Assembly: GCA_047967505.1 (NCBI GenBank)
Contig: CM106538.1
Source of the DNA: Dipteris shenzhenensis
Taxonomy: Eukaryota
Reading direction: 5' to 3' (one strand)
DNA: 64,000 nt
The notes beneath the pieces are model-generated. The model ran no database searches. It was not told the DNA's origin and was given only the letters and a program-made list of their open reading frames with translations. This document shows, piece by piece, positions 8,950 through 50,542 of the stretch. The position numbers and the translations under genes are program-made. The first letter of the stretch is position 1. Every line of letters starts with the position of its first letter.

Positions 8950-11915
8950 GGTGCGGACCCGTGGAATGAGTGTAAAAATTGGGCTGAAAATGGCAGCATG
9001 GAATTGCAATGGTACCCTTTGGTCCGATCCATGAGGTTCTTGGAGACCTACACAGATAGAGACATTGTCTTTTACACCGAGACACGTGAGAGCCTAGAGA
9101 GAAGCCTGCCCACAATGACGGATACACCTGGGAGTCAGCTCATAGGAGAGAGATGAGGAGAGACAGTGGAATACGAGGCTCTGGAGGTGTAGCTATTCTC
9201 TTTAGATCACAATATTCATAGTATAGAGAGAGGTGCATGCACAACATATGTGGATACGAGTCTAATTACTGGAGGCACGTCTGATCTTCATTGTCGTGTG
9301 CTACTTCCACCAAGATACATCATCCCATGCACATGAGGTCGCCACAGAGAGACACAACCCATCACGGAGTTCTCTAGACAAGGAGATATCCTCCTTCTCG
9401 GTGACTTCATTTGCACGCACAAGAGATAGGCAAGTGGGATTGCTGGATTTGGAGAATGACTCTCTCATAGTACCGGAGCTAGATCCAACACAGCTTGGGA
9501 TAGTGAGGCACTCGGTAGATGCACACATGTGATAGGGTATGGGCATCATCTACTTGAGCTGGGACCTGTCCACGACTTCATTACATATAATGGTCTCCAA
9601 AGACGGTCGTGGCTCACTTGCTTCCCAGATGGTGAAGGGACCAGTACAGCGGACTATCTGATGGGTCCCTTGGCCTTTGTACCACAGATAAATGACTTCA
9701 TTATGCCTTCCCCCTGCTCAAAGCTGAACACTCATACCTAGCTTTAGCATCTCAACTACCATGCCAACCATAGGGAGAGCCCCCTGTTAGAAATCAACCA
9801 ACAGAGGGTATGCACAACGAAAGACTGATAGAATAGCCTAGGAGCTCACATAGTGTGGTGTGGGGTGTGGAATCACAAACTTCTTAAACTTATGTACATA
9901 GCACAGGTGTGCAGACTCTAGACAATGAACCTATCAGATAGAGAGACCACCAAAATAATATATTTTCATCCAAAGCTATAAACACAATACAAATCCAAAA
10001 AAACCGACCAGCAGCATCATTCTGGCCGACCCAAACAGGCCGACCAGTCTGCTGCAAAACCAGCCCTTTAAGGGCTCCAAAACTGGGGCTGACTGCTCCA
10101 TTTCTTCATGCAGGTTCCAGCCTTGGTTTGGCCCTTCAACCAGGCCTGGTTGGCTGGCTGTATCCAGCCCAACCAGCCTGTCTAGTCAGGCCTTCTCCTC
10201 TGCTGTCCACCTGCCATCTCTACTGCGCCACTTGCAAGCTCTGTTGCAGGTCATATACCTGCCCACAAGCAATGCCACATGGCTCGCCTTTCAGTTGCCT
10301 TTCTCCTGGGTATTCTCCGCCATTTGGTGCTGCTCCAAACAAGCCTCTGACAGGCCAGATCCAAGCTAGACCTCCATAGCCAACTTTCCGTCCATCTATT
10401 GCAGCCACCATGGCTCCTCCAGGTTCTTCTTTCTTTCTCTGATCTCTGCCCCCATGGCAGCCATCTTGCTGCCCATGTGGCCATCCCCAGGACCCAAGTT
10501 CACCCCCCCCCCCATGTTCTCTTCATATAGGGGCTTACAGATGGGGAGGTGACCTTTCCAACACGCCCCACCCACACCCACCCATGTCCAGGTCCACTTT
10601 GACCATGCTCTTGATCCAATCTACGTGAGTCATCTAGCGCATGAGCTCCCGAACCTACTTGGAGAAGATGCAAACCTCACCCATTCTTCGGATATCCTTG
10701 TCTCAATGACACAAGATGTTGCGGCTAGATCCTTCTCCACAACCCGATCTGCAACATATGCCCCGATTGGGACGATGCCTCGGAATCCTTGGTATGATGA
10801 CAAGTGCAGACAAATGAGATCTTACCTTACATGTGAGCAAGCCTTGGGCCATCTTAGGACACATAAGGCGCGGCAAATTGCACGACTGACACGTCGTAAG
10901 AGGCGAGCTTTCCTCACACACAAGATGGAGAAGGTGATCTGATCTTCTCAAGGGGGAGACCTACCATTGGATGGGGGCTCTTGACTGAGAGGAAGCCACC
11001 TATTCCCATCACGGATCCAGGGGTTTGGCACAATTATGCGAGTTCACTCTATGATGTTCCGATGCAAACACCACCTAACATGTTATCCTTGCCCAAGGGC
11101 ACCACATGTCGTTTGTTCACTACACAGAATGTACAGGGCACGCTCTGCCAAAAAGGAAGAGCTCAAGATCATGAGGGCCTACGGATGGAGTATTTTGCAC
11201 ATGGGCAGGAGGAGGTCCTAGCTCCGATTTTAGCGGATATGTTCCACCACACTGTATGCCACGGCTTCCCCTCACAAATTGGAGTACTACCACCATTGTG
11301 CCCATACACAAAGCAGAAGATCCCATGGACAATGGGAATTACTGCACCCTTAAGATTGGCTACACTTTGGCCAAGCTATATGGGTCGGTACTAGAGAGGG
11401 AGATCAACAGTCACAAAGAGACAAATGGGCAACGGGCCTAGGCAAGTTTCCGACGATAGCACTCCACCCTTGACCACATCTTCACTTTGAGGGCCATCAT
11501 AGAGGAGGCGAAATCAAGGTGCCAAAAAGTCTACGCTTGCTTTCTAGACTTCCAAAAGGCCTTTGACACTATCACATGCTCCCGTATGATCAGGAGGCTT
11601 CAAGAGATGCAAATTCTAGAGGTTTTGATTTAGGAAGGAAGTGATGAGTCTATACAAGTCTGTCAAAGGGAGAGTTTGGGCCCCAGGGGGTCTATGAAAC
11701 TAGGTCGACAGCACCATCGGAGTGAAGCAAGGATGTTCTCTTTCACCGACCCTCTTCAGGCTCTATATTGACAAGATCCCATCCTTTATTGACCGCCTAG
11801 GAGGCGAAGGATCACTGTAGGCCGAATTGATAATACAAATATTGCTATATGCAGATGACATAATCCTTGTATCATCTTCAACAGAGGGGCTGCAAAGGCA
11901 TCTAGAGGCACTAGA
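8950..11915 (+). mobile_element. Degenerate LINE (endonuclease 8990-9780; RT 10570-11915) split by a solo LTR
   Basis: AWNCNG, IVFYTET and TSTADYL endonuclease-like motifs; PWYDDKC, IVPIHK...NY, DFQKAFD, GVKQGCSLSPTLF and YADDIILV RT motifs. Confidence 0.88.
9785..10563. mobile_element. Solo LTR (779 bp)
   Basis: Termini TGTTAGAAA...TTTCCAACA (imperfect inverted repeat), flanked by CCCCC/CGCCC (5-bp TSD, one mismatch); interrupts the LINE between its EN and RT regions. Confidence 0.8.
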
Positions 11916-15934: not shown

Positions 15935-18280
15935 AATGATCTCTAAGGAATACTTGCCCCCAGAAGACAAGTTAGATGATATCAACTATCCTACACGGTC
16001 CTACACCAAGAACTTGTGGAATATTATTGCAAGTTAGATGATATCAACTATCCTACACGGTCCTACCGGCATGTGGCAACAAAAATGTAATCATAATGAG
16101 CAATATTTGTTGATTCATCCTTCTCAGGTGAAGATGAAGCAGGTAGGATCCTTCAATTCATGATTCATGCATGGCTATCACATGACATTTATATACCTTT
16201 GTAAGACTAGAATAAGTCCAATCATACAAATTTAGATTTTTTGTTGTTCTAAAGATCAAAAATCTACACAAAAAATAAAAGAGAAAATGAAAGAGAGAAA
16301 AAAAGAGGTAAACAAAAACTTTTATGAAAAACAAAAGAAAGACATACTTAGCAAGAAAAGCAACACTTATGTCGTATTTAGTACTTGGTACTTGATAGTG
16401 GTACTTCTAAGCACATAACTTCATTCAAAAAGTTGTTTCTTTCCTTGGATCATGCACTTAACGCAAACACTATGACTTGTGCTCATAATGCCTCTTATGC
16501 CGTGAAAGGAATTGGCCAAGTTGAGCTTTTACTTGAGCATTTGGTCATCTAGTCTCTCTTCAAGATGTTTTATATGTTTCAAAATTAAAGAGAATTGTTT
16601 ATAGAGTAATTTTTTATGGTTACCATTTGTGACGTTTATGACTTCAGAACTAGCTACACCATTGTCATCACTAGAACATTGACTAGAAATCTGCACAATC
16701 TTGGTGCCTATGAGAGAGAGACAGTACTCTCTTATTGCAGCCACTCATTTGTGGCATGAGCATTTTGGGCATCTAAACTATGGTAGTTTGGCCAAGTTAC
16801 AATTATAAAATGTGGTTGTTAATCTCCCCAAGATGCATGCATTATCCAAATATGTTTAAAAGGGATGTTTACTTGCATCAGTTTCCTTCTCTAAAGATGG
16901 AAGTGCCAGTGCAGCCTGCAAGTTGCATTTAGTTAATAGTGATGTTTGTTGTCCAATGCTAACAACATCTATTGGTGGATATTCATTATCACTTTTGTGG
17001 ATGACTTCACTCATCATACTTGGGTTTATCCATTAAAATTTAAGTCCGATGTCTTTGCATGCTTCAAAAAATTTCATGCTATGGTTAAGAATGAAGGTGA
17101 ACACAAACCGAGTTACACTCCGCACTGACAAGAGGGGTGAGGATATCCCACAGAGTCAGTTGACTTTTTAGCATCTCGTGGTATAATGTACTATGCCATC
17201 CAAACCACAACAAAATGGCGTTGCAAAATGTAAAAAATAGAACCTTGATGGAGATGGCAGTGTGCATGATGAAGGATAAGGCTTTGGCCAAAAAATTCGG
17301 ATAGAATGCCATTATGTGTGCAAATTATGATCCACCAAGGCATTAGAGACTATTACTCTGTATGAGGCTTGCACAAAACGTAACCTAGTCATTTCCCACA
17401 TGAGAGTGTTTGGAAGCCTTGTTTATGGCATCTATGACACAAGCTTGAGGACAAGACACTTAAATGCGTCTTCATTGGTTATATACCTAGATGAATCAAG
17501 GAACATTCCCAAACTCATCCTCTAAAAACACAACATAGTGCAGTTTCAATCTCATGATAGTCACTCACAAGGTTAAAAACCATAAACTCCATCATGCATA
17601 GCAGGGACTAGCTACTATGACATCCCCATTGACGTCATCAATGCCCAACAATGGGTGTAGACCATAATATAAAAATATGCTCTCACACATACAAATCCAC
17701 ACCCACACATACTTGAGCATCCATTTATACAAAGTCTTCGTACTGAGTTTCTATCGGCACTCCGGAGGTGAAGGGCAGACTTAGCCATGACGAAGGCTAT
17801 CACTAAAGGAGAAGGCTAATCAAAAGGTAGTCCAAAATCTCTTCATTCAAGCTACAACTGCATGTGAAGTATAAACGTTTTCATTTTAGTCTCTCCCCAA
17901 CGAGCATCTAAATCTAAATCTAGCTGATAGGGCAACGCACCATTTAAGATAGAAAGAATTATCACAATACCAGCAAGCCGCAACTTGGACGAAAACTGCA
18001 CAAGGTGAAATTTGCATGTCCGCTAATACGGCAAAAGCATATACCTAGATAAATCCAAGAACATTCCCAAACTCATCCTCTAAAAACACAACATAGTGCA
18101 GTTTCAACCTCATGATAGTCACTCACAAGGTTGAAAACCATAAACTCCATCATGCATAGCAGGGACTAGCATCTTCATTGGTTATAGTTCAAAAAGCAAC
18201 AGTATCAGTTATACCAACCAATTACTAGAAAGATTATTACTAGTATGATACTGGTCTTTGCTGAAAATTTGGTTACAAAC
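15935..18280 (+). mobile_element. Highly degenerate Copia (gag, protease, integrase) interrupted at 17483
   Basis: LDSGTSKHIT-like protease, WHEHFGHLN, ITFVDDFTHHTWVYPLKFKSDVF; KCVFIGYS spans the insertion point. Confidence 0.82.
17483..18170. mobile_element. Unclassified ~690-bp element, copy 1, with 130-bp direct terminal repeats (17483-17612; 18041-18170) and 14-17-bp TSD
   Basis: Repeat ATACCTAGAT...GGGACTAGC at both ends; TCTTCATTGGTTAT duplicated at 17469-17482 and 18172-18185. Confidence 0.92.
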
Positions 18281-19310
18281 CTTGGTGGCCATTTGGGGCA
18301 GCAAGCAAGGGTCTTCCTAGGCAACCTCAACTAGGAGGATTGTTTTCCTTAGGGGATTGAGTGGCTCCCCTTTCTTCTCGAAGTCCTTCATACAGGTGAG
18401 CTCGCATTTCAGCCTCAACCTTGGTTTTTCTCTAGCTCTCTTACACAAGTTTTTTATTGTGTTGTTTTCGCATGTCTTGCATGATGTAATCCTCCCTTGA
18501 GCTTTGCTCTTGGAGTTTCTTGAAGTATTTCCTTGGGATCAAGGAGTCCACTCCAAGATCACTGAGTTGGCCCATGATCGCCACTTGTACATTGCATGGG
18601 ACGCTAGCTCTCATCCTCAAAAAACTCGCAAGAGCAAGTTCCTCTAGTCAAGGTGGATAATGAACATACAAAGATGATTCACCACTAGGGGTAGGCATGC
18701 TAGTGGCTGATCCACCGACACACCCACAAACCACAGACGCCTTCCCATAAAGATGTCTCCTATGCACATGGGAGTAAGCAGAGCACCGCACCAAATTCGT
18801 CCATTACACTCACCAAGTCTATCCATCCTTCTCGAGCCATACATAGCATCTAGAGGCAGCTGCACACAGGCCTATCTTCCAAAGCCAATCCCCAACTCAA
18901 AACAATGCACGATGAATGCTATTCACAAAGGATCGCATAGATTATATAAAGAGACGAGACATTGGCAACTTCTAGATAGATTATATACACCTTCATTGTG
19001 ACTTAGGAGCTATTGACGATGAGGAGCATGCACGTTTGGCTGCCTACACAAACATCAAAGCACAATCTCTGGACCTTCCTTGAACTACACCACAATTTCA
19101 AACTCCCCGTCTTGCAGAGCCGAAGGACAACTTTAGCAAAATACATTCCTGAGATTTCAAGCAAACAAGACCAACCCACACACTAGGGTGGACACAACCT
19201 TACAGACTTCCCTTGCTTAGGTGATCGCATATGTATCTCTATTGGAGTTTAGCTAGCCACTAGCTAGCACATAGGTTTCACTAGCTAGTCAAATTGCATA
19301 TACCATGCAC

Positions 19311-19313
<3 letters not shown>

Positions 19314-19370
<57 letters not shown>
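19314..19370. repeat. (CT)n microsatellite
   Basis: Direct inspection. Confidence 0.95.
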
Positions 19371-19374
<4 letters not shown>

Positions 19375-21344
19375 ATCCTGCTTCAACATGTATCCACTTG
19401 CTTGATGCTATTTCTTTTTGTTTTTCAATAGTATGCTTATTAAGAAATGAAATGTTTTCCTACTGTTTAGTTACGGACAATGGGGACTAGGTCTAGCATT
19501 TGAGGTTGGACCCCCTTGCTTGAGGTTATAAGCATTAGTGACCCACAAGAGTGATGGCCTCTCTTTGAGAGGGACATCTGGAAACCACACCCCACCTGAG
19601 TACCCAAACATGGGACCAATCAAATGCACAGATTGCATATTGACCTAGGAACCATTCAAGAGAATGTTCCCTGAGCTTTGAGTGTGGGCCTAGCAGCAAG
19701 CCAAGAGTAATGGAGATACAAGATAAGACGACAAACAAATGAGCTCAGTATGGCTCAATTATGATCTTAGAGTACGTCAATAGATAGTCCAAGCTGTTGA
19801 GAACCCGTGGGTGCGATCAGAATTGAATTCTGACAACTTTGAAATTTTAGAGTTTTTGGGAGTGACACATGGCAGACTGCCACATGGAATCTGAGCTGGC
19901 AGGTTAGTCCACCTATCCCACACATGTGGCAGCATGCATGGCAAGTGGCAGGGCATGCAGGCTAAGTGTCTGGCCCCAAATATTTGGGGCAGGTTGTGGA
20001 CTGTTCTCTTTGGGACTGCAGCCCACCAAAAATCTGAGACAAGTGTCCACCTTCCACTCTAAGCCTGGGGGGGGGAGGGACTGAGCCTATAAAAGGCGGC
20101 CTCTCCCCTTCATTCCCTACATGAAAATTCGTCACTTTTCTTCTCCCTCCTTTAGAATGATACAACAGAACCTCTCCAGCTCCTTGGATGCAACCAGCTT
20201 CTCCCCAAGCCATTCTCTCACCTCAGCAGCACTTTCTCTCTCTACAACAGCACATTCTCTCTCTACAGTTCTAGCCCCTTCTCTCCAGAAATCTGCCCCC
20301 TCTCAGCTCTTCTGGAACAGCAGCAGCATCCTCTCTCCTTCTCCTAGCCTGGAGCAGCCACAACCCCTTTCTCTCTCCTGCTGCAGTCTTTCTCTCTCTA
20401 CTGCAAAATTTCTCTCTCTAATGTTCCAGCCCATTCCCCTTGCAGAAATCTGCCTTTCTGTGCACCTCTGGAACAGCAGCAGCTCCTCTCTTACATCCCC
20501 TCCCTTGGGATCAGCATTGGCACTCTCTCTCTACAGCTATCACTCCATAAAGGCTTTCTCTCTCTAATGTTCCAGCCCATTCCCCTTGCAGAAATCTGCC
20601 TTTCTGTGCACCTCTGGAACAGCAGCAGCTCCTCTCTTACATCCCCTCCCTTGGGATCAGCATTGGCACTCTCTCTCTACAGCTATCACTCCATAAAGGC
20701 TTTCTCTCTCTAGCCTACATGCTGTATTTGTAAGCTGTTCTCATTCCAGCCCCATTTTTCCACACTCTCCTCACCCAAGGTAGCTTCAGAGGCATCAAGG
20801 ACTTCATCTACAAAGGGGTCAAGTCACGAAGGGAGCCTGTATTATCAAGTTTATCTCATTTACAGCACTATTTCATGTTGTTTCTACTATCTTTCTAGAA
20901 ACTAGTGCTTGCCTCTAATGTTGGATGTAAGTGGTGTTTGTTGCAGGCTTCTTCCTTGTGGATTGGGCAAGCCAAGAGTTGAAACCTGAGCTTGGAGTCC
21001 TCCTTTTTGTTGTCTACCTTGTACATATGCTCTTGAGTCTTGTATCTAGGTCCTAGGCTTTCACTGAGTTCATCAATTTGGAAGGTGCATTGCACCTTGG
21101 TCTTGTATCTCCATTTTTAAGAATAAAGTGAGCCTGGATAAGGAGGGGGGCCCGTCTTGGCCCCTCAATCATATTGCAATTTCCAATGATGTCACTTTGT
21201 GTTTAAGCTGTATAAGTCTTAATTCCAGCTTAATTGCAAACTCTTAAGTTCAAGTATATGTGTTTGGCAACTCGCAATCATTTCATTCAAACACCTTTGC
21301 AAAATCCGTTGCCTGAATTGATAGAAAGCATCGAGTAGTTTACA
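19371..21344 (+). mobile_element. Long solo LTR (~1.97 kb) inserted in a (CT)n tract
   Basis: Starts TGTCA, ends TTACA, with CTCTC on both sides; TATAAAA at ~20088; AATAAA at ~21122; internal ~150-bp tandem duplication (~20405-20712); no coding motifs. Confidence 0.72.
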
Positions 21345-21389
21345 CTCTCTCGCACACACACACACACATCAAAAGCTACAGGGCCATTA

Positions 21390-22962
21390 TGATTAGACAT
21401 TTGTTGCTTCGTAGATTTGCACAAGACGTTTGACACAGTGCCGAAAGCCCTGCTCATCAAATGTCGCCTCTACATAGATGAGCTTGAGACCTTTATTGGG
21501 ACCCTAGGAAGGGCTAGTTGCACTCTAGCCGGATCCTTGCTTTAGATTCTCTTGTATGCAAATGGCGCGGTCTTACTCTCTCCTCAGTAGAGGGTCTCCA
21601 ACAACACTTGGATGTGCTTCATACCTTCTATGAGACACATGACTTGGAAGGTCAACCTTGGTAAAACCACGGTCATGATCTTCCACACGTCTCGAGTAAC
21701 GATGCAGAAAGAGCATTTCACCTTGGATGGATTACTAGTGGAGGTGGTTGCATCCTACACATACTTGGGAGTCCTTTTCTTCGACCCCAATCGTCACGAC
21801 GCAACCAACCTTGTAGGCCCGACTAAGAAAGGCATACGCCGCACTAGCCAAACTCAAGCGACAGTGCTTTCACTCTCACTTCCAAGACTCTCGGACCAAG
21901 ACCCTTTTCTTTCAATCTTTGGTCCAAACAACAACTATGTATGGCAGCCCTTTTTGGGAGCCAGACCTATCACAAACAGATTGGGCACGAGTCGAGAGGC
22001 TTCAAGTTCTCATTCTTTCACGAATGATTCGCAGTAAGCCTCAACCCCACATTAGGTAGTCATGGCTGAGTTCAAAGTATCCCCACTACAACTCAATGAA
22101 ACATTTCAAGTTATCACGTATATATTGCATTAGACAGTACGGCTCTTGCACCACAGGGACTTAAGCTTCCTTGGTTGGCTTTATCCTCATCTATGGCATT
22201 AGTAGCAGAGGGTGACCAGAGGTGTTGGTATGCAAGTACATGCAGTTGGTTTGAGAGCCTATAGCTTTACATAGATAAGTTACCTCCCTTCCAGTACAGC
22301 ATCGAGGCCCCCCTCCATCATGCTCACATATCACAAGTTGAACTAGGTCATCCGAGGGGATCTTTTTATAGTGATACACATTCACAACTTGGTTGGCAAC
22401 TCGTTGGCTACCTATGAAGCTTTTTACTCAGGGCACATATGCCAGATCAGAGTATACAACTAGACTCCACTTACAGCAACATCACTGCCAAAAAATACCG
22501 ACCAACAAGACCCACAAAGACGATGGCTATAAGGACCCAAGCCAAAGATACGTGAGACTCGACGGATGGGGCACAAATCACATTAGAGGGCCTCCTCTCC
22601 ATATTCATATGACCGGAGACAACCTGTAGGAGTGACAGTGACATTTGTTTGCCGCGGGGCTATAGCTAAGAAACCACAACACACCACACATGTCAACAAC
22701 TGCCAACACTCCATCATAAGTTTTATGCAAACCCCTCTTAGGGTTGACACCCCCGCCAACTCCGTATCCTCTCAACGAGCCCGAAGAGTTTTATATCTAT
22801 GTATTTATGATCATGATTATGGGTTTTCTTTTGTATTTGTCATGGGTGTTGAAGCCTGCTTAGTGGCTCTAGTCCTCAGCTCATTGTATCAAGTTCTTTT
22901 AATCTCATAGCACCTTTGGTCTTTTGAAGACTTTGAATAAACTTCCTATCTTCTTTCTTTCT
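21390..22962 (+). mobile_element. 5'-truncated LINE remnant (RT C-terminal part and 3' end)
   Basis: CCFVDLHKTFDTVP, LLYA(N)G and VEVVASYTYLGV motifs; ends AATAAA followed by a CTTT/CT tail. Confidence 0.78.
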
Positions 22963-22975
22963 CTCTTTAACCTAT

Positions 22976-23665
22976 ATACCTAGATGAATCCAAGAACATT
23001 CCCAAACTCATCCTCTAAAAACACAACATAGTGCAGTTTCAATCTCATGATAGTCACTCACAAGGTTGAAAGCCATAAACTCCATCATGCATAGCAAGGA
23101 CTAGCTACTATGACATCCCCACTGACGTCATCAGCACCCAACAGTGGGTGTAGACCATAGTATAAAAATATGCTCTCACACATACAAATCCACACACCCA
23201 CACACTCTTGAGCATCCATTCATACAAAGTCTTCGTACTGAGTTTCTGTCGCCATTACGGAGGTGAAGGGCAGACTCAGCCATGATGAAGGCTAGCACTA
23301 AAGGAGAAGGCTAATCAAAAGGTAGTCCAAAATCTCTTCATTCAAGCTACAACTGCTTGTGAAGTCTAAACATTTTCATTTTAGTCTCTCCCCAAGGAGC
23401 ATCTAAATCTAAATCTAGCTGATAGGGCAACGCACCATTTAAGATAGAAAGAATTATCACAATATCAGCAGGCCGCAACTTGGACGAAAACTTCACAAGG
23501 TGAAATTCGCATGTCCGCTAATACGGCAGAAGCATATACCTAGATGAATCCAGGAACATTCCCAAACTCATCCTCTAAAAACACAACATAGTGCAGTTTC
23601 AATCTCATGATAGTCACTCACAAGGTTGAAAGCCATAAACTCCATCATGCATAGCAGGGACTAGC
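22976..23665. mobile_element. Unclassified ~690-bp element, copy 2, with 130-bp direct terminal repeats (22976-23105; 23536-23665) and 13-bp TSD
   Basis: Same sequence family as 17483-18170; CTCTTTAACCTAT duplicated at 22963-22975 and 23665-23677. Confidence 0.92.
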
Positions 23666-24534
23666 TCTTTAACCTATCCTAACTCCACTTAGCCTCGCCA
23701 ACCCCCAACCTTTCCGCTCAGCCTTGCCACCCCCTAGCTCTTTTGCTCAGCTTCGCCAATCCTTTTTCTACTTTGCTCAACCTTGCCACTCTACTCATCC
23801 CATCTTTTTTCCTCTCTTACCTAACCCACACAGGCCCCCTACCTAGATTGGACTCCCTCCCACGCCCAATCCATGGGTTATGAAATCTAAACCCTATGAT
23901 GTCCCCATCATCCCCGCCCTAGTCTCCTCCTTAGGCCCCTTCCTAATAAAACGAGGTGTGGGCTCTTCATATGCAGCCTCTGAGTCTCATCATCTTCGTG
24001 CTCAGCCCTTCTTATTTTGGAGATGAGTAATCACAAAGACCAAAAGAGTCCACTATGTCACACTATAGAATGCCACACTTACACTCCTTAGCTATTTGAT
24101 ACGTATATAGCCATCTATCTAGCACTCCTTACCTATTTAACAGGTATGTTATGTATTAACTATCTATCTATTTATCTGCCTACCTACTTTTCTATCTATC
24201 TATGCTTGGCCCTTTCAAATATGAGCAAACACAAAGAGTGGGATGAGGAGAGAAGGATGATTATGATTGGGACAGCAAAAGGCTTAACCATTGAGCAATT
24301 ACAGCCCATACTAACCGATATCTCAACGAGAAGGATTCACATCGATGCATCTAAGAGATTGAAGGCAATTGAATGCCCAAAGGAGCCTATGTTATTCAAA
24401 GGGTCACATGTCCAAGACAATGGACTTGCTCCAAATTAGAGAGAGGTCACACCTCCTCCACCACTTCCAACGACGCTATTCCTATGATCTTGGCAGTTTA
24501 ATGCATAGGCAAATTTTGTCTTCCAAGGACATTA

Positions 24535-36809: not shown

Positions 36810-39800
36810 TTACTTTTTCGGTCCAATGTCAAGTCGATGAAGATGCCTCTCTAGCAAGTCTCTTCCAAGAGCCTTCGTGAAGATGTCCGCAGCATTCTCT
36901 ATAGTTGGACAGTACACCAAGTCGACCTCTCCATCCATGATGAGCTTGTGTACAAAGTGATATTGAATCTCAATGTGTTTTATGCGAGTGTGGAACACCG
37001 GGTTCTTTGCAATCGCCATGCAACTCTGATTGTCACATGATAACTGTGTAGGCTTGTTCTGCACTGCACCCATGTCCCCCAAAATCATCCTCAACCACAC
37101 TGCCTCGCAAGAAGCAAAGCATGTAGATTTGTACTCGGCCTCAGTAGAAGAAAGAGCAATTGTGGGTTGCTTCTTGCTGACCCATGACACAACTCCAGAT
37201 CCAAGTGAGAAACAGTATCCTGTCACTGATCTCCTGCTATCAACGTCTCTTGCCTAATCCGAGTCACAGAATCCGGTCAATATATTGCCCTTGGTATAGG
37301 TGATGCCATAATCATTGATGTATTTCAGCACTCGCATCCCTGCCCTCCAATGGTTCTCCCAGGTATTATTGAAAAACCTGCTTAGTACACCAGTCACAAA
37401 ACTGATGTCCGAATGTGTGTTGCACAGGTAAATCAAGCTACCCACAAACCTTCTATACTTCACTTCATCCACCAGTGGTGATGAATCCTCGTTTGAGAGT
37501 TTCGCATCGACCTCCATAGGGGTACCAACTGTCTTGCACTCACCCATGCCAAATGCCTTCAATATCTCTCTAGCATACTTCAGCTGTGAAATGAAGATCT
37601 CTTTCGGCTCCTGCCAAACTTCAATCCCCAAAAAGAAATGCATCAGTACGAGGTCTGTCATTTCAAACTCTCTTCCTAGCAAATGCTTCGTCTGCGAGAT
37701 CTCCTCTTCATGGTTCCCTGTTATGACAAGGTCGTCCACATAAAGGACCACGATCATACACCTGCCTCCTTCTCTGAAGATATACAAATTTGCATCAGAT
37801 GGGCTCCTCTTAAATCTATTTTGCTGACAGTAAGCATCAATTTGCTGGTACCACAATCATGGGGCCTGTTTCAGCCCGTAAAGTGCCTTCTTTAGTTTGT
37901 AGACTTTACCTTTTGAACTGGGATCTCAAAACCTGGTGGTAGTTCCATGTATACCTCCTCCTTGAGATCTCCATTCAGAAAGGCAAATTTCACATCCATC
38001 TGAAACATGGGCCAACTTCCCTGGGCAGCTAAAGCCAAAACACTGTGAATTGTGGTTAGTCGAGCTATGGGAGCAAAAGTATCTTGATAATCAAAACCAT
38101 GTACCTATGCAAATCCTTTTGCCACAAGCCGAGCCTTGTACTTATCCAACATGCCGTCGGACTTGTTTTTCTTGTACACCCACTTGGTTCCGATTACCTT
38201 GCATTTTGGTGGTTGATCCACAAGGTCCCAAGTGTTGTTCTTCATTATGGAGCCATACTCCGACTGCATAGTCTCCATCCACCTATCATCGCCCTGTGCC
38301 TCTTCAAGACACTTAGGTTCATCAGCACGGATCACTTCTGTCATCAAAACATAGTTGACCAAGTGTTCCTGCGCCCTTCTTTGCTCCTCTAATCTCTTAA
38401 ACTGGTGGTGTTTGGATGGTTCCTCCTCAATGGTTGGAGGTTCTTTGCCATCCAAAAGCTACTTTACCCACTTCGGGAATGGCCGTTGCCATTGTGGTTC
38501 TGTAGGCTCTTCATCTTCTTTGTCTTGAATCCTCCCAAGCACTGTTGGGGGAGTTCGGTCTGCTATTGGTGGCAGTACTGAATGGATATCCTAGTCCTGG
38601 TTGTCTGGGAAGGAAGCATCCTCCTCCAATTGATGCAACTGTTCTGAGAAGACCACATCGTGACTTACAATTACCTTCTTGGTAACAGGGTTATAGAGAC
38701 AGTAACCCTTCGCCTCTTTAGTGTAGCCCAAGAAAATCCACTTTCGGCTCTTCGGTTCCCATTTGGTCCTAGTAGCATCAGGGACATGCATAAAACAGTC
38801 ACATCCAAAAACTCTGAAATGTGCAGCTGAAGGTTTCTTACTAGAAAAGGCTTGCAGTGGAGTCATCCCATTCACAGCTTTCATGTAGCTATGATTCAGG
38901 ATGTAAACTACAGTGTTACATGCTTCAACCCAGAAAGACTTTGGCAAATCTTTCCCTTTCATCATACTCCGGCCCATTTCGCAGATGATGCGCATCTTGC
39001 ATTCTGCTACTCCATTTTGCTGTGATGTATGTGGCGAGGGTTTCTGCCTCTTGATCCCGTGACTTTTGCAGTAACTTTCGAATTCAGTTGATGTGAACTC
39101 TCCACCTCTCTCTGATCTCAACTTCTTCACCTTCCTCCCCGATTCTTTCTCGACCATTACATGCCATTCCTTGAACCTACTAAAAGCCTTGTCTTTAGTC
39201 TTCAGGAAGTATATCCATATCCTTCTATTGTAGTCGTTGGTCAGCATCATGAAGCAGTAGGAACCACCCAAAGCTTCCATCTCCATCTTTCCATAGAGGT
39301 CCATGTGAATGAGCTCTATAGGAGCCTTTTCCCTGCTGGCCTCTTTAGGAAAGGGCTGCTAATGCTGCTTGCCCATCATGCAAGCTTCACATACATCGGG
39401 TAGATCTAAAATTTCTAGTAGGCTTGTAGTCATTCCACTTTTATGTATCTCCTTGAAAGAACTAAGGTTTAGATGACCAAACCTCTCATGCCACAACTTA
39501 GTGTTCATCACATCCGCTCGAGGACTGAAAGCTGAGAGTTCGTAAATGTTGTTACGCCCGTGTACCTTTACCAATGACCTTCCCTTGAAGATCCAAAATT
39601 TGTGCACCATTCTTATCGAATTGAACTTTGAGGTCTCGATCCATGATTGCGGAAATGGACAACAAGTTTCTCTTGATATCTGGCACATAAAGAACATCGG
39701 ACAACTGTTTTACATCTCCATCTGACTTGAGAGCAATCGTACCTGTTCCTTTTGCTAGACATTTTGCATCATCGCCGATTGCTACCAGGATGTCATTCCC

Positions 39801-40430
39801 TACCGGCTGTAGAGAGGTATACCAATCCTTCCGACTGGTCATGTGGCGTGATGCACCACTGTCAATGATCCACGGTTCATCCACAGGCACATGAACTGCC
39901 TCCATGCAAATCTCCTCAATTGCTACGAATAGCTTTATTGGTGCTGCCTGTGCACTGTTGTTGGACTCTTTCTTTACTCTGTTCTTCTCATCTGCAATCT
40001 TCTTTTGGCACTCATTCTGCTTGTGGCCTACCTTGTTGCAATAGAACCACTTGATCTTCTTCTTTCTCTTTTTATCATCAGAAGAAGATGGGTTACCAGA
40101 GTCCTTACCCTTACCTTTCTTTGATCCGGTCTAGAAAGCCGAATCTTCTCCAGCAGTCCTCGTCTTTTGACGCATCTCCTCCTCTAGAAGCATCGCGTTG
40201 AAATCCTCAAAGTTGAGGGGTGGATTTCTATTCTATGTATTTAGTGTCGTAACAAGACCGTCGTACTTTGGTGGGAGAATCCGTATGCACCTTCGTGCTA
40301 GATTCTCGCTGGTGATGGTGATGCCAATTGCAATCATTTGAGACAACTTCTCGTTCGCGAGTTGAGTCTCTAGATTCTGAATCCGCATTTGATTCATGGT
40401 CTCATACTGATTTTTCAAGACCGTCCATGC
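36810..40430 (-). pseudogene. Disrupted Copia gag-pol of the outer element
   Basis: WIIDSGASRHM, WHERFGHLN, LRSERGGEF, YKARLVAKGF, LYVDDL and ALSSTEAEY motifs, split by stops and frameshifts. Confidence 0.93.
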
Positions 40431-40436
40431 CTCCTC

Positions 40437-43400
40437 TATATGCAGCAAACTCAAGAAAACGAGTCCTATGGAGGAGGACATGGTAACTCTAGAGGTAGGG
40501 GGAGCCAAAGAGGCCGTGGTGGATGGCAAAGAGGCCAAAATGCAAACAACAATGTTGAATGCTACTACTGTGGTAAAATGGGTCATATGGCTAAGGACTG
40601 CTACAAAAAGCAGAATGACATTATGAATGGAAAATTGCAGCAAGGCAATTATGCATCTTCCAGTAGACAGGGTGATGACAGAAATGAGCATCTATTTATG
40701 GTGCAGCATATGACCAATTCTATGACAAGTGTAGAAGAACGCAATGATGTGTGGTATGTTGACTCAGGTGCATCAAACCACATGACAGGTCATGCAGAAT
40801 GGATGCAGGATGCAAGGAAAATGGAAAAACCAGGATTTGTGGAGACTGGTGATGATACTGCACATCCTATTGTGCAGATTGGTAAAATTCCTTTGTCTAT
40901 GCAGGATGGGAAAAAGAAATACCTATCTGATGTATTTCATGTCCCGAACATCACCAAGAACCTGGTTTCTGTTGGTCAAATGGTTGAGCAAGCTTGCAAG
41001 TCAGATTTAATCCTCATGGATGCTTTGTTGAGGATATGAAAAATAAAGGTTACTTGATAGCAAAAGGAAAGAAGAAGGGCAGGATGTTTACGTTGGATGC
41101 GGACATGCCTAAATTGAGTGCAGCAATGTTTGCACATGGGACCGGTGTTGTTGCAGATATTGATATATGGCATAAACGCATTGGTCATGTTAATATACAG
41201 CAACTTAAATCAATGCAAGCCTGAAATATTATTGTAGGATTGCCTAAATTCAAGGTTGCAGAAATGCATAAGGTTTGTGAAGCCTGTCAATTTGGAAAAT
41301 AGGCAAGGAAACCATTTCCTAGGCATGTTCAAGAGAGTAAAAAGCCATTGGAATTAATCCACTCTGATGTGTGGACTACTAAAGCTGCATCTATTGGAGG
41401 CTGTCACTATTTTGTCACTTTTATTGATGACTTCAGCAGAAAAGTTTGGGTGTATTTTATGACAAAGAAAAGTGAAGTGTTTTGGCACTTCAAAGCTTTT
41501 AAAGCTATGGTTGAAAAAGAAACAGGCCTACAAATAAAATGCCTAAGGTCAGATGGAGGGGGAGAGTACCTCTCAAATGAGTTCGCAAGGTTCCTGCAGG
41601 AGCATGGCATAAATCAACAATATTCATGCAGTCATACCCCACAGCAAAATGGACTTGTAGAAAGGAAAAACAGGCATATTGGAGAGGTATCTCGGGCCAT
41701 GCTAAATGAGAAAGATCTACCAGATTATTATTGGGCTGAAGCAGTTGCTACAGCAGTTTACATAATGAACAGGACTCCCACTGCAGCAATACATGGCATG
41801 ACGCCAGAGGAGATGTGTACTGGTAGGAAACCAGACATTTCTCATTTGAAAGTTTTTTGTTGCATTGCCTATGTTCATGTGCCAGATGAGTTGAGGTCCA
41901 AGTTGGATCCAAAAGCTGAGAAGTGCGTCTTTATTGGTTATTCTCTGTAGCAGAAAGGGTATAGATGCTATAACCCTTCTACTCGTAAGATTACAGTGAG
42001 CAGAGATGTTGTTTTTGATGAGATGAGCAGCTGGTATAAACCAGTAAATGTGATGATTGATGTAGATGCACAAAATGGTAATGCTGCATAGAATGAATTC
42101 AATGCAACAGTCACAAAATATCAGTGGACCTACAGTGTCCTCTAGCAGTGGTTCACATACTTCGCCATGGACAGGCAGATTGAGATCAGGAGAATCTCCT
42201 CAAAGCAATGCAGATAGTGGTACGCAGGTATCACAAAAAGGAAAAGAGAAGGTAGATCAGCCCATGTTTGATGTGAATGTAGGTCACTCTTATGTGAATG
42301 GTGAATCCAGTGGCTCAGAACAGAGCATTGATGATGAGTTGGGTATTCCTTCTGTTGTTACATCTAGAGTAAGGAAGACCAGGGATATTTTGAGAGCACC
42401 TGGAAGTGAGCCTATTTTGCACAGGTCTACCAGAGCTAGGTATCCTGTGGATAGGCTAAAATATGATGGATTTACAGCCATTCACTATGCCTATATGGTC
42501 AAAGTGATACAGGAACTAGAACCCACTTCTTTTGAACAAGCCATGGGAAATGAAAAATGGGAGAAAGCCATGGATGAAGAAATGGATGCCTTGGAAGCAA
42601 ATGCTACATGGGAATTGGTGCCTTTGCCTAAAGACAAGAATGCAATTGGCTGTAAGTGGGTTTATAAGATCAAGAACAATGCAGATGGTTCTTGAATAGA
42701 TACAAGACAAGATTAGTTATCAAGGGGTATGCACAGACATACGGCATTGATTATGAAGAAACATTCAGTCCGGTTGCAAGGATGGCAACTGTAAGAGCAG
42801 TCATTGCTATGGCTGCATCAAAGGGATGGTCCTTACACTAGATGGATGTAAAGAATGCCTTCTTGCATGGTGATTTGCAAGAAGAGGTCTTTATGGAGCA
42901 GCCACCAGGTTATGTTCATGCTATTCATCTTGAGTTTGTTTGCAGGTTGAAGAAAACCTTGTATGGCTTGAAGCAAGCACCTAGAGCATGGTCTGACAAG
43001 ATAGGACAGTATCTTGTCACTATTGGCTTTCATATTTCCAAGGCAGATTTCTCACTCTATGTGAGAAAAAGAGAGAAAGGGATTATGCTGCTTGTCATTT
43101 ATGTTGATGATTTGATCATCACAGGTGATAGTGATGAAGATATCCTTCATGTGAAAATGCTATTGAAGTAGAAATTTGAGATGAAGGATTTGGGAGAGCT
43201 ACGTTATTTCTTGGGCATTGAGGTTATTAGATCACCAAGTGGGATACAGCTCTTGCAGAGGCAGTATGGATTGGACATGTTGTCCAAATATGGGATGACA
43301 GGCTGTAAGCCTATTTCAGTTCCTTTGGAGCAGAATGTGAAGCTGAGCACAGATGCAGGTGAGCTTCTGGAAGACCCTACTATGTACAGATGCATAGTAG

Positions 43401-44398
43401 GAAGTTTGATTTATATGACTATTACCAGGCCAGATTTAAGCTATGCTGTTGGATTGATAAGTCAGTTTATGCAGGCTCCAAGGAAACCGCATTTGGATGC
43501 GGCTAGATGCATACTCAGGTATGTGAAGTCCACATTGCAGTATGGACTATTTTATGAGGCTGGGGTTCAGATACAGTTGCATGGATACACTGATGCTGAT
43601 TGGGCTGGTAGTATTTCTGATAGACGATCTACCAGTGGATATGTGTTCTCTTTTGGGAGTGCTACAGTCACTTGGAGCAGCAAGAAACAGCCTATAGTTG
43701 CCTTGTCAAGCATAGAGGCTGAGTACAGGGGTGCAGCAATGGCTGCATGCGAGGTAGCTTGGTTGCATAAGCTACTCTATGATATGCATCAGATGGGCCA
43801 GTTGTCATTTATTGTGACAGCATGAGCAGTATACACTTGGGAAATAACCCAGTCTATCATGCTAGAACAAAGCACATTGAGGTGCATTATCACTGTGTGG
43901 GAGAAGGTTTTACTAGGTCTTATTGATCTAGTTTATGTCAGCATAGAGGATCAGGTAGCTGACATATTCACGAAAGCATTGGGCGCAGAGAAGCTGCGCA
44001 ATTCAGAGACCTGCTTGGTGTGCAGGAATTGGGATTGAGCTCGAGGGGGAGTGTTGAGATATCGAGCTCCACTCGTGATATGCGAGGGTGACCATTGTGC
44101 ATTTATGTCACCGACTTGTTAGCTGCAGACACGGTTGGTACACCGCCTATGAATAATAGCTGGATGACAGCTATCCTTATCTACTCTAGTTTGTGGCTCA
44201 GTGAGTATGCCACCTTAGTTAGTCGAGTTTGGTTTGAGACCCACATATAGGGTTCTTCTATTTCTTTATACTAGAGTTCTTTTGGCTTTCACAACTAAGA
44301 AGAGGAAAACTGTTTTCAGCCTCCACCTTTGTGTGTATTCCCCCATTGTGCATGTGAGAAAGCCGCAAGTGAGACTCCTTCCCTCTCTCCCACTATCA
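40437..44398 (+). mobile_element. 5'-deleted Copia nested in the outer gag; 3' LTR 44052-44398; relative of the 49666-55125 element
   Basis: RGG-rich gag end, CCHC knuckle, WYVDSGASNHM, and IN/RT/RH with several stops. PPT GAGGGGGAG then TGTTG...CTATCA. The outer gag resumes on both sides (...IMALIQH | EAWTVLKNQ). Confidence 0.92.
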
Positions 44399-47300
44399 TG
44401 TTGAATTAATGCCATGATGGAATCACTAACACTCCAGATAATAGAACACAATGCATCTGCATTTCTTCTTGTCCATGCGAGAATCTCATCCGCAGTTGGT
44501 ACTATTTGTTGTCCTACATTGGCTGGATCCCCGGTCTCGCAACCCCAGCCTCACGTCCACCCCAGTAGCAGTGTCACAAAGCTCATATGCACTTAGGATG
44601 GTCTTCATCTTGAACTTCTAGTGTGGATAGTTAGAGCCGTCCAACTTTTCGCTTTCGTCGAACGGTGGGATTCGCAGTCTTGAGGGCTGGGCCATCTCTC
44701 ACAATCTGCTTGCAAACAGAAACACACTACCAAATCTTCTTGCTAGAGTCCGAGCTCTGATACCATGTAAGAAAATAATACAACGTCTGTGCTCAACAGA
44801 TAATAGGATCTTGTACGCAAGAGAGAAAACAAGATAGTATGGAGAATCAAAAATTTGATTACCGTAGAACTGATACAATAGATGGCGTTGCCTCCCAACC
44901 GTGCACTCCTATGAAAGAAGCTTCGATGGCATGCTGGAAATAGTAGAAGATGGAGGTTGGAAGATAAGGAATCAGGGTTGCTATAGCCAGTGATGAAATG
45001 GGCTTCACGGTCTTGCTCTTATATCGCCACCAGTCATAGTTGGTTAGGCTCAATTGGGTGACTGACCCAGTCTGCCCAAAATGGTCGATTGTGGGTTGAT
45101 CTTGAAATAGGCTACCGACCATACAATAAAACCGGTGCGCAAAACATAGCAACTAACCTACAGTCTCCGTTCGGCCCAGAGCCATCCAGGATCATTTGAG
45201 GCTCCAAACGGGCTTCGCAACCTGAGAGTGGGCTGCCCCGAGAAATGCTCCATCTACCCTTAGTGCGGTCAGTCACAGGATGCCTTCCCGCACTTGCATG
45301 TAGCCTAGTTGGTGGTGTGCCAACTCTATCTGAAGCCGTCCAACCATCAGGCCACACATGGCCCCCATCTGGTGTCCAAACCAGGACCTACCGAATAACC
45401 GAGCTACTCAAATGCCTTCTCCTCATATGGGGGGCTTATAAGTAGAGTTAGCTAGTTCCCACGTAGTTACACGAGAGTGGAGCATTGATATGTAACAAAA
45501 TTCATATGTGAGGGTTAAAGAAGTGAGTTGGAAGAATTGAACTTGGGCATGGCAAAAAGGCCGCAGAAAGTAAAACTTAGTGTACATGTGGAAGGAAATT
45601 TCAAAGCAGAATTGATGCAATTACTAATGGAATTTGAATATGTTTTTTCTCAAGAATACATCAACATGAAGGGGATCAATTTGAGAGTGTGTGTTCACTG
45701 CATAAATCTAAAAAAGGATGCAATTCCAATAGTGTAATAGAGGTATCGAATGAATCCTAACTATGTTAAGTTGGTCAAAGAACAAATAAATAAATTGATT
45801 AGAGTAGGTTTCATATACCTTGTGGAAAAAGTGATAGATTTCCCCAATAGTCATAGTCCCTAAGAAAAATGGAAAATTGTAGCTGTGTGGACTATAAAAA
45901 ATTGAAAGTAGCCTCTATCAGCAATCCCTTCCTTCTATCTTTTTGTGACACTATGTTGGACGCAGTAGTGGGCCATGAAGTGAATAATTTTTTAGATGGA
46001 TTCAATGGTTATAATCAGATCCAAATGGTAGAGGAAGATAAAGACAAAATGGCATTTGTGATGGAATGGGGGTGCTTGCATAAGCAATGTAATGAATCAT
46101 TCTAGGGATGGATGCAGAAAATTTTTGCACCATACCTCACAATTTTCATGTGAGTGTTTTTGGATTACTTCAGTGTGTTTGGCAAAAAAGATGCACATTG
46201 AACAACTTTGGCTCTGTTTTGGAAAATGTGGAGAGTCTCAGTTGAGCTTAAATCCGATAAAATGTGCATTTGCAATTCGTCGGGGTGTCTTACCTAGACA
46301 CATCATTTTAATAGAAGGGATGGCTATTGATCCAAGGAAGGTTGCTATAGTCTAGGAGGCTAGAGAGCCCATAAATGCTAAAGAGATCATGTGGTTCATT
46401 GGGCAAGTGAAATGGCACAATAGATTTCTCAAATATTGTTCCTATGTCTGCCAACCATTGACAAGATTGATTAAGAAAAATGAATAATTTATTTGGAGAG
46501 AGTAGCAGCAAAAATCATTCAAGCTATCGAAGAAAATGCTGGTGGTAGCACCTATCCTCATCCCATGGGACCAGAATCGAGATTTTCATGTCTCTATGGG
46601 CGCATCAGATAGTGCCATAGGTGCAGTCTTAGTGCAAACCGGGGTGGTTCCAGCTGATTTATTATGTCAATCGTACCTTATCATCATCTGAACATAATTA
46701 TTTAGTTACTGAAAGGAAAGCCTTGGGCATGGTATATGCTTTGCAAAAATTCAAGAATTATCTTTTGGGCAGTGTAGTGGTCTTTCATGTTGACCATCTA
46801 GCATTAATGTATTTGATCAATAAGCCACAACCATCCGAAAGGATAGTAAGATGGATCCTCCTCTTACAAGAATTCAGCTACTATAGAATAGTGCACACAC
46901 CAAGAAGAAAACATCTCATTGTGGATTACCTTAGCATATTAGAGTCCGGGGAACACCCAGGACAAGGAACTCTAGATGACATACCAGATGCATCTTTGTT
47001 CCAAGTGCAAGCCATTCGTGGAACACATTGGTATGACCAAACACTACAATTCTTGATAGATGGAATGTTTTATTTCTAAAATTTTCACAAGGGATTAGAG
47101 GCATAGATTGGCTCTCAAAAACAGACCATTTATGATCATTGCAGGAGCATTGTATAAAAGAGGAATAGATCAAATACTCCGACGATGTGTTCCAGACCAT
47201 AAGCAACATGCTGTTTTGTATTAGGCCCATCAAGGGACATTGGGTGGCCACTTTGAGGGTGATGTGATAGTAAGAAAGATCTTTCAAGCTAGATTGTGGT

Positions 47301-50300: not shown

Positions 50301-50542
50301 GGTGGAAAGGTGCCACAGAAACTGCGTCGTATGCCTGTGTGCAGAGATATTGGGAGTTGCAGATTCATGCCTGTTGCCTGTTGATGCAAAATCGTCACTA
50401 GGAAGTGACTGTGTGGTGAAATACCACTTTCGTCAGTGTTGCAGATCTGCCCCTGTGAGGCTCTTTGCAGAAGTTTTGCTATTTGCCCTTTTGAGGCATT
50501 TGCTGTGTTTACAGGTTGCTGTTGCAATTCGTGATTTGTAAA

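Follow-up and report, generated by a model that had tools for sequence, protein, structure and literature searches.

The window analysed here is a 64,000-nucleotide (64-kb) stretch of Dipteris shenzhenensis DNA (GenBank assembly GCA_047967505.1, contig CM106538.1), and it carries two closely related insertions of about 690 bp, which we call e1 and e2. Each has the layout A-U-A, with a 130-nt sequence (A) at either end of a unique part (U), and each sits between copies of its own target-site duplication (TSD). We believe, with some room for doubt, that they are probably full-length copies of a non-coding, non-autonomous retroposon whose sense strand is the minus strand of the window. It would have been inserted by target-primed reverse transcription (TPRT), with a reverse transcriptase (RT) and endonuclease supplied in trans, and its terminal repeats would be those of a partial tandem dimer, that is, pseudo-LTRs (pLTRs; LTR, long terminal repeat).

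Structure of the two insertions

The first insertion, e1, spans 17483-18170 (688 bp) and the second, e2, spans 22976-23665 (690 bp). An end-to-end alignment shows 94.8% identity, with 25 transitions, 9 transversions and 2 gap columns (Kimura two-parameter distance, K2P, of 0.05). The parts of the two copies are as follows, with A' and U' standing for A and U in the sense orientation.

17483..17612, minus strand: repeat A of e1, window-left; the 3'-terminal A' of the full unit in the probable minus-strand sense, with the repeat really beginning at 17481
17613..18040, minus strand: unique part U of e1, 428 bp, non-coding
18041..18170, minus strand: repeat A of e1, window-right; the upstream 130-nt partial copy (pLTR) in the probable sense orientation
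22976..23105, minus strand: repeat A of e2, window-left
23106..23535, minus strand: unique part U of e2, 430 bp, non-coding
23536..23665, minus strand: repeat A of e2, window-right

From the start of one A to the start of the next is 558 nt in e1 and 560 nt in e2, and A-U-A amounts to 1.23 units in both. The ends read ATACC...CTAGC on the plus strand and GCTAG..GGTAT on the minus strand. An initial annotation of this DNA had described two A-U-A insertions of ~690 bp with the same ends, an A of 130 bp and periods of 558/560, and this description was confirmed with one refinement. The true match between the A copies is 132 nt, as the "AT" that precedes ATACC recurs at the internal U-to-A junction; in e1, element positions 557-688 match 17481-17612.

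Seven sites vary among the four A copies. Only one of the seven is informative about the relation between the A copies within an element, and it is A/A in e1 and G/G in e2. We found no third copy or fragment of the element in the window (blastn; nhmmer with --max, 0 further matches at E <1).

Insertion sites

The sequences that flank the two insertions were identified as follows.

17469..17482, unstranded: TSD of e1, left copy, TCTTCATTGGTTAT, 14 nt, within the Copia codons K-C-V-F-I-G-Y
18172..18185, unstranded: TSD of e1, right copy, TCTTCATTGGTTAT; the Copia match picks up again after it
22963..22975, unstranded: TSD of e2, left copy, CTCTTTAACCTAT, 12-13 nt
23666..23677, unstranded: TSD of e2, right copy, TCTTTAACCTAT; the C at 23665 is counted in both the TSD and the element end
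16982..17482, continuing at ~18194-18265, plus strand: degenerate Copia integrase (IN) split by e1, found by tblastn with the window's intact Copia polyprotein

The TSD of e2 can be written as (C)TCTTTAACCTAT, 12-13 nt, where the bracketed C (G on the minus strand) is common to the target and the element end. In e1, the bases before the two TSD copies are GCG (17466-17468) and GCA, a difference that a CpG-type transition would explain. The e1 duplication may thus originally have been 17 nt long, in which case the first "GC" of the element would be junction microhomology. Throughout the window, just two pairs of exact direct repeats of at least 12 nt lie at an offset of 650-750, and they are the TSDs of e1 and e2. 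The distinct TSDs of 14-17 bp and about 13 bp in the initial annotation are therefore real and the only repeats of their kind.

The empty site of e1 can be checked, since this copy lies inside a gene. With the Copia polyprotein at 52099-54867 as the tblastn query, IN residues 28-205 match 16982-17482, up to the very point of insertion (KLEDKTLKCVFIGY), and residues 209-232 match just past the right TSD. Because the match resumes directly past the right TSD, one copy of the 14-nt duplication restores the collinearity of Copia, which validates the empty site and bears out the earlier placement of the first insertion inside a Copia integrase.

Taken together, the insertion signature supports a target-primed endonuclease and RT over an integrase as the likely agent. 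The TSDs are variable at 12-17 bp, both junctions have 1-3 nt of microhomology, and there is no TG..CA, primer-binding site (PBS) or polypurine tract (PPT). The initial annotation had proposed a non-coding element with pLTRs that is mobilised by an endonuclease-RT, and with these TSDs and this microhomology it is still the best-supported reading.

Coding capacity and terminal motifs

Neither e1 nor e2 has an open reading frame (ORF) of more than 66 amino acids, and we found no terminal inverted repeat in either. A scan with the methionine tRNA PBS motif gave 53 matches in the window at up to 3 mismatches, and none of them was in e1 or e2. As a positive control, the same scan found exact matches at 44754 and 49964, beside the window's real Copias. 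No PPT adjoins the downstream repeat on either strand of e1 or e2. The PBS scan and the repeat and ORF checks agree with the initial annotation, which had seen no PBS, PPT, poly(A), terminal inverted repeat or meaningful ORF.

We also looked for structural RNAs. ARAGORN found 0 tRNA-like genes in the whole window. With a cut-off of E<=10, Rfam searches of the two strands of 16500-24500 gave no hammerhead or other relevant family, and at the gathering score they gave none in the whole window. The hammerhead core CUGANGA...GAAA has 5 matches in the window, all of them outside e1 and e2. An HDV-like (hepatitis delta virus-like) P1 pairing of the first 7 nt was checked by hand, gave only 6/7 and was dropped.

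On the sense strand, A' contains T5 runs, at which RNA polymerase III (pol III) would stop. Reading by eye, we found promoter-like motifs in U of e1, namely TGACGTCA at 17630-17637 and TATAAAAATA at 17668-17677. No tail of a long interspersed nuclear element (LINE) that resembles the 3' end of the element was found within the window.

Relatives in public sequencing runs

Parts of the element occur in public sequencing runs, of which 20 are listed, from 13 studies, with word shares of up to 0.31 and labels for organisms A-F and an algae metagenome. None of the listed runs is on record as RNA, and X5 and X6 may be RNA. Four runs (X1, X3, X5 and X6) were compared to 17300-18060, a stretch that begins in the Copia flank, crosses A and U and reaches 20 nt into the second A, and contigs that matched at 85% identity or more were considered. 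There were 761 such contigs in X1, 7 in X3, 505 in X5 and 80 in X6. Summed contig depth over the Copia flank (17300-17455) was zero in all four runs, and over the element it was very high in X1 and X5. These contigs show that the element is a multi-copy family in several (at least four) organisms, and apparently an abundant one in related organisms. The initial annotation had allowed for a mere local duplication with shared flanks; the presence of the family in run contigs of several organisms and the zero depth of the Copia flank speak against that.

Matches begin at exactly 17480/81 in X1 record 1, X5 records 16 and 17, and X6 record 24, and X6 has 8 contigs with unlike sequence ahead of 17479/80. 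X5 record 16 is a contig of 2148 nt that matches over 17481-17624 alone, which shows that there are shorter copies with this end. X1 record 2 ends at ~17614. The canonical U-to-A junction was found in X6 record 25 and in X3 record 9, a circularly permuted monomer of 559 nt with 19 mismatches and an even depth of 14-20.

Among the listed joints, those that go back along the element mostly return to one place. Six of the seven land at 17480-17484, from 17529, 17543, 17556, 17730, 17863 and 18033, and the seventh runs from 17639 to 17596. Filler at the listed joints, where given, is 4-28 dissimilar letters. Read on the minus strand, these joints are head-to-tail, with an upstream copy that ends at a constant base and a downstream copy whose start varies, as TPRT elements with 5' truncation and Penelope-like partial tandems both show.

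Depth in X1 and X5 is high at 17482-17790 and about 100-fold lower near 18040. We did not rely on this gradient as proof of 5' truncation, because it is summed contig depth and because the window has two full copies and no fragments.

In X6 (organism D), the most abundant part is a stretch of ~80-100 nt over the junction between the end of U and the start of A (17976-18057, 17481-17517), with a depth of 500-1700 against 16-380 elsewhere. The X6 contigs diverge past ~17517 and ~18057, and another repeat may share only this junction module.

Exact 18-24-mers of the element had no match in metagenome, genome or viral contig collections, apart from one 18-mer in viral contig L001. We took that match to be chance, as the alignment is limited to those 18 nt.

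RNA folding and the sense strand

The minus strand of e1 folds to -206.6 kcal/mol (z -4.41, with 0/20 shuffles as good) and the plus strand to -135.1 (z -2.40). The four A copies folded alone have z between -1.4 and -2.8 on the minus strand and between -0.2 and -1.7 on the plus strand. Two hairpins stand out in A'.

17489..17520, minus strand: 3'-proximal hairpin of A', a 14-bp stem followed by an 8-nt single-stranded tail, AGGUAUAU; present in 4/4 A copies
17545..17578, minus strand: central hairpin of A', UUUCAACCUUGUGA / UCAUGAGAUUGAAA, with a 7-nt loop; 13-14/14 pairs on the minus strand, 12/14 on the plus strand

In the right A of e2, 5 of the pairs in the stem of the 3' hairpin are G·U, and the left A of e1 has one U·U mismatch in this stem. 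Where the minus strand has G·U, the plus strand would have A·C mismatches. This hairpin contains three of the seven variable A sites. At two of them, C or U faces G and the pairing survives, which holds for the minus strand alone; the third is a disruptive singleton.

The better folding of the minus strand, the G·U-dependent hairpin and the asymmetry of the joints together suggest, indirectly, that the minus strand is the RNA (sense) strand, and we regard this as fairly likely.

Proposed insertion mechanism

In the explanation that we favour, the sense unit would run 5'-GCUUUUGCC...CUAGGUAUAU-3' over 558 nt of the window's minus strand and would have a constant 3' end, ...CTAGGTATAT. Both TSDs terminate in TAT on the plus strand, and the first nick would fall after this ...TAT, at GGTTAT^AG in e1 and ACCTAT^CC in e2. 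The 3' end of the nicked target could then base-pair to the AUA at the end of the RNA and serve as the primer for complementary DNA (cDNA) synthesis. A second nick 12-17 nt off would produce the target duplication, and the 5' junction would be sealed by 1-2 nt of target microhomology (G in e2, GC in e1). The RT would likely recognise the RNA by its 14-bp hairpin, which is rich in G·U pairs and stops 8 nt short of the 3' end, together with a short (UA)n tail.

A-U-A would be a partial head-to-tail dimer, in which a 130-nt, 5'-truncated copy stands directly upstream of a full unit. We think that this dimer was probably inherited and not rebuilt at each insertion by template jumping, because the upstream piece is equally long in e1 and e2 and X1 record 2 also ends at ~17614. 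The template RNA would then already contain both A' copies in full, the upstream one at its 5' end and the downstream one at its 3' end. Candidates for the autonomous partner are a Penelope-like element (PLE) with a GIY-YIG endonuclease or a stringent-type LINE.

Several points weigh against this explanation. The window has no RT or GIY-YIG ORF and no element-tailed LINE that we could find. The hallmarks of PLEs that we looked for at e1 and e2, which are a hammerhead, a tail of 30-40 bp and an inverted upstream copy, are all missing. There is no poly(A) in either copy; the 3' end is merely ...GGTATAT, and the clear simple-repeat tail of most short interspersed nuclear elements (SINEs) is missing as well. 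We considered the TGACGTCA/TATA pair as the promoter of the element and rejected it, as the starts predicted on the minus strand (~27 nt before A') and on the plus strand (near 17700) match neither element end. How a dispersed A'-U'-A' copy could be transcribed from its first base is left unexplained. The two full copies have fairly symmetric junctions, which leaves a plus-strand sense possible. The single informative A site is element-specific and fits either an inherited dimer or rebuilding at each insertion. There is also the matter of the runs. Their depth, being summed over contigs, differs from copy number; the listed joints are 15 of 32 and the listed loose ends 23 of 372, some of which are diverged element sequence; and the 3'-heavy depth of X1 and X5 would predict many 5'-truncated copies, of which the window has 0 (nhmmer, E <1).

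Alternative explanations

One alternative differs from the explanation above solely in the origin of the template RNA. The 558-bp unit would exist in master copies, arranged in tandem or as circles, and a transcript would start at the start of A', pass a promoter-proximal end signal and stop at the next one, as has been described for pararetrovirus 35S RNA and the RNA of LTR elements. The resulting R-U-R RNA (R 130 nt) would be inserted by TPRT in trans, and the dispersed A-U-A copies would be dead on arrival. This would account for e1 and e2 agreeing exactly in both ends and in their 130-nt redundancy, and the informative A site, common to both A copies of an element, agrees with it. So does the TGACGTCA and TATA pair within U as read by eye, except that the distances from TATA to the ends misfit the start of A' and that the sense 3' end has no poly(A) or AAUAAA-like signal. 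The circularly permuted 559-nt contig of X3, with its even depth of 14-20, might come from an array, but it is equally expected from A-U-A copies, and we saw no array of two or more full units. On balance we judge this account unlikely. Another possibility is a retrozyme-like circular RNA of 558 nt that is reverse-transcribed for ~1.23 turns, with its cDNA inserted by a LINE or PLE enzyme; the initial annotation had offered this as a variant. It would explain a length of more than one unit, the periodic arrangement of the family and the long variable TSDs. However, hammerhead, HDV-like, twister, hairpin and other self-cleaving families are absent at E<=10 on both strands, and the CUGANGA...GAAA core is in neither copy. 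The two independent insertions also have identical starts and stops, which is unexpected from free-running copying of a circle, and we consider the variant very unlikely.

Copy-and-paste at the DNA level by an HUH/Rep protein, as in Replitrons or Helitrons, would give an element whose termini repeat directly and which forms a hairpin close to one of them. The A of e1 and e2 does have hairpins, and CTAG occurs close to both of its boundaries. In the part of PMC10288648 that describes them, Replitrons are said to have direct terminal repeats, a hairpin at the right end, variable TSDs in Replitron-1 and a high copy number in non-seed plants. The same source gives terminal repeats of ~6 bp, against 130 bp here, a DNA-level mode of movement and TSDs only in Replitron-1, and its account suggests that seed plants lack Replitrons. 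A rolling-circle copy between equivalent nick sites would yield 1.0 unit and not 1.23. The structure signal is strand-specific and G·U-rich, unlike that of Replitrons, and the best hairpin needs its G·U pairs, which makes it a feature of RNA and not of DNA. There is also no Helitron TC...CTRR with an A/T insertion, so that we find this explanation highly improbable. The last candidate is a miniature LTR element moved by an integrase, similar to a terminal-repeat retrotransposon in miniature (TRIM) or SMART, with atypical ends. A short non-coding core between direct terminal repeats is what such an element looks like. The TSDs, though, are unequal and of 12-17 bp, against 4-6 bp, and the ends are ATACC..CTAGC. 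There is also no PBS motif inside the element, in contrast to the exact ones in the window's Copias, and no adjoining PPT. We give this candidate almost no credence. In sum, the LTR/TRIM and retrozyme identities were rejected because they fail the features tested.

Other features of the window

The initial annotation had called the left flank of e2 a LINE tail, and we could not uphold that label. There is a degenerate RT-like frame at 21393-21800, with the motifs FVDLHKTFDTV, LLYANGAV, KTTVMIF and YLGV as read by eye, and tblastn finds for it a single weak relative, upstream at 11538-11874 (E 7e-5). Neither Pfam (ORFs of at least 84 amino acids and read-through frames, E up to 1) nor phmmer against PDB gave an RT match for this frame.

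An apparently intact Copia lies on the plus strand at 49964-54867. It has its PBS at 49964, a gag-protease ORF at 50495-52126 (544 amino acids) and an IN-RT ORF at 52099-54867 (923 amino acids), with full Pfam domains. Its best named relatives are angiosperm proteins at ~50% identity, and other relatives reach 60-69%, which points to a sparsely annotated plant lineage as the probable host. Two degenerate Copias lie head-to-head at 36846-44082 (minus strand, 36846-40487; plus strand, 40443-44082), and the one on the plus strand has 64-79% protein identity to the intact Copia.

Two tandem repeats are also present. A 146-bp repeat of ~3 copies lies in a CT-rich stretch at 20232-20712; its copies at 20409-20554 and 20555-20700 are 100% identical, which indicates a very recent duplication. 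At 47251-47458 there is a 111-bp tandem duplication (1.9 copies, 86% match), near an ORF at 46633-47076 with Pfam RNase H-like (RT_RNaseH) domains.

Relevance to annotation

Automatic annotation routinely files direct terminal repeats as LTR or TRIM, and in plants such repeats may also come from partial tandem TPRT insertion. Annotating this family as an LTR element would yield wrong "LTR ages" and a wrong class. As the family is seemingly abundant in several related organisms, it is relevant to repeat libraries. If the partner is a PLE, PLEs would have a wider range and a greater impact among land plants than is known so far. If it is a LINE, this would be a case of a "SINE" that works independently of pol III and whose insertions are habitually 1.23-mers, of use for the study of RT template jumping.

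Comparison with known systems

In stringent-type LINE/SINE pairs, the RT of the LINE recognises a 3' stem-loop and a short repeat tail. The element resembles such pairs in being non-coding and apparently inserted by TPRT, in its variable TSDs, in having no need of poly(A), in its hairpin near the 3' end with a UAUAU tail, and in its target microhomology. Unlike SINEs, it has no pol III head derived from tRNA, 7SL or 5S (ARAGORN 0; no Rfam match), and unlike the usual SINEs it has terminal direct repeats of 130 bp.

Plant LTR retrozymes and TRIMs are, in the portion of PMC5680766 that deals with them, small non-coding elements bounded by direct repeats and abundant in plants, and in this they are similar to e1 and e2. 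Their TSDs of 4-5 bp, PBS/PPT and TG..CA, and the hammerheads in the repeats of retrozymes, have no counterpart in either copy.

The likeness to PLEs is mostly in architecture. As presented in the relevant sections of PMC8557442, full-length copies of PLEs are preceded by a truncated copy, the pLTR, and pLTRs arise by partial tandems. The same sections describe non-autonomous Chlamys PLEs of the green lineage that form pLTRs and head-to-tail insertions, and report that one of them, MRC1, was once misread as a non-autonomous LTR element. They also place the Naiad and Chlamys clades among those without canonical hammerheads. In the part of PMC3846280 that gives measurements, pLTRs are 181-218 bp and TSDs 8-10 bp, and unrelated cargo has been moved between pLTRs. 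LINE and PLE insertions have TSDs of variable length and are often 5'-truncated, according to the text of PMC9977147 that covers both.

The element is closest in this respect to non-autonomous PLEs, such as MRC1 and Chlamys-N of Chlamydomonas and the non-LTR retrozymes of animals, with which it shares short non-coding pLTR tandems, variable TSDs and a probable RT and endonuclease in trans (from the pertinent parts of PMC8557442, PMC9977147 and bioRxiv 10.64898/2026.07.22.740005). Both e1 and e2 have pLTRs that look like partial head-to-tail tandems, and variable TSDs of 14(-17) and 12-13 nt. They differ from the canonical Penelope/Poseidon-type PLEs in that their pLTR has no hammerhead. They also differ from PLEs in having no 30-40-bp tail or inverted copy and in an upstream partial that is fixed at 130 nt in both copies; truncated tandem partners occur only in the run contigs.

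The host is a second difference. In the passages of PMC8557442 on distribution, Chlamys occurs in Selaginella and streptophyte algae, conifers have a horizontally acquired canonical PLE, and within land plants Selaginella (Chlamys) and the conifers are the only ones given for endonuclease-bearing PLEs. Our search of papers, as distinct from Repbase and Dfam, found no such land-plant element described. It is conceivable, though we remain doubtful, that this land-plant family joins the RNA logic of LTR elements (an R-U-R template with an R of 130 nt, from tandem masters or an inherited dimer) to insertion by TPRT; on the same doubtful footing, it would perhaps be the first non-autonomous PLE family without a hammerhead to have reached a very high copy number in land plants other than the lineages with reported endonuclease-bearing PLEs. 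We do not claim membership of the PLEs for the element, which may depend on a PLE or on a LINE; in architecture it is the PLE group that it resembles.

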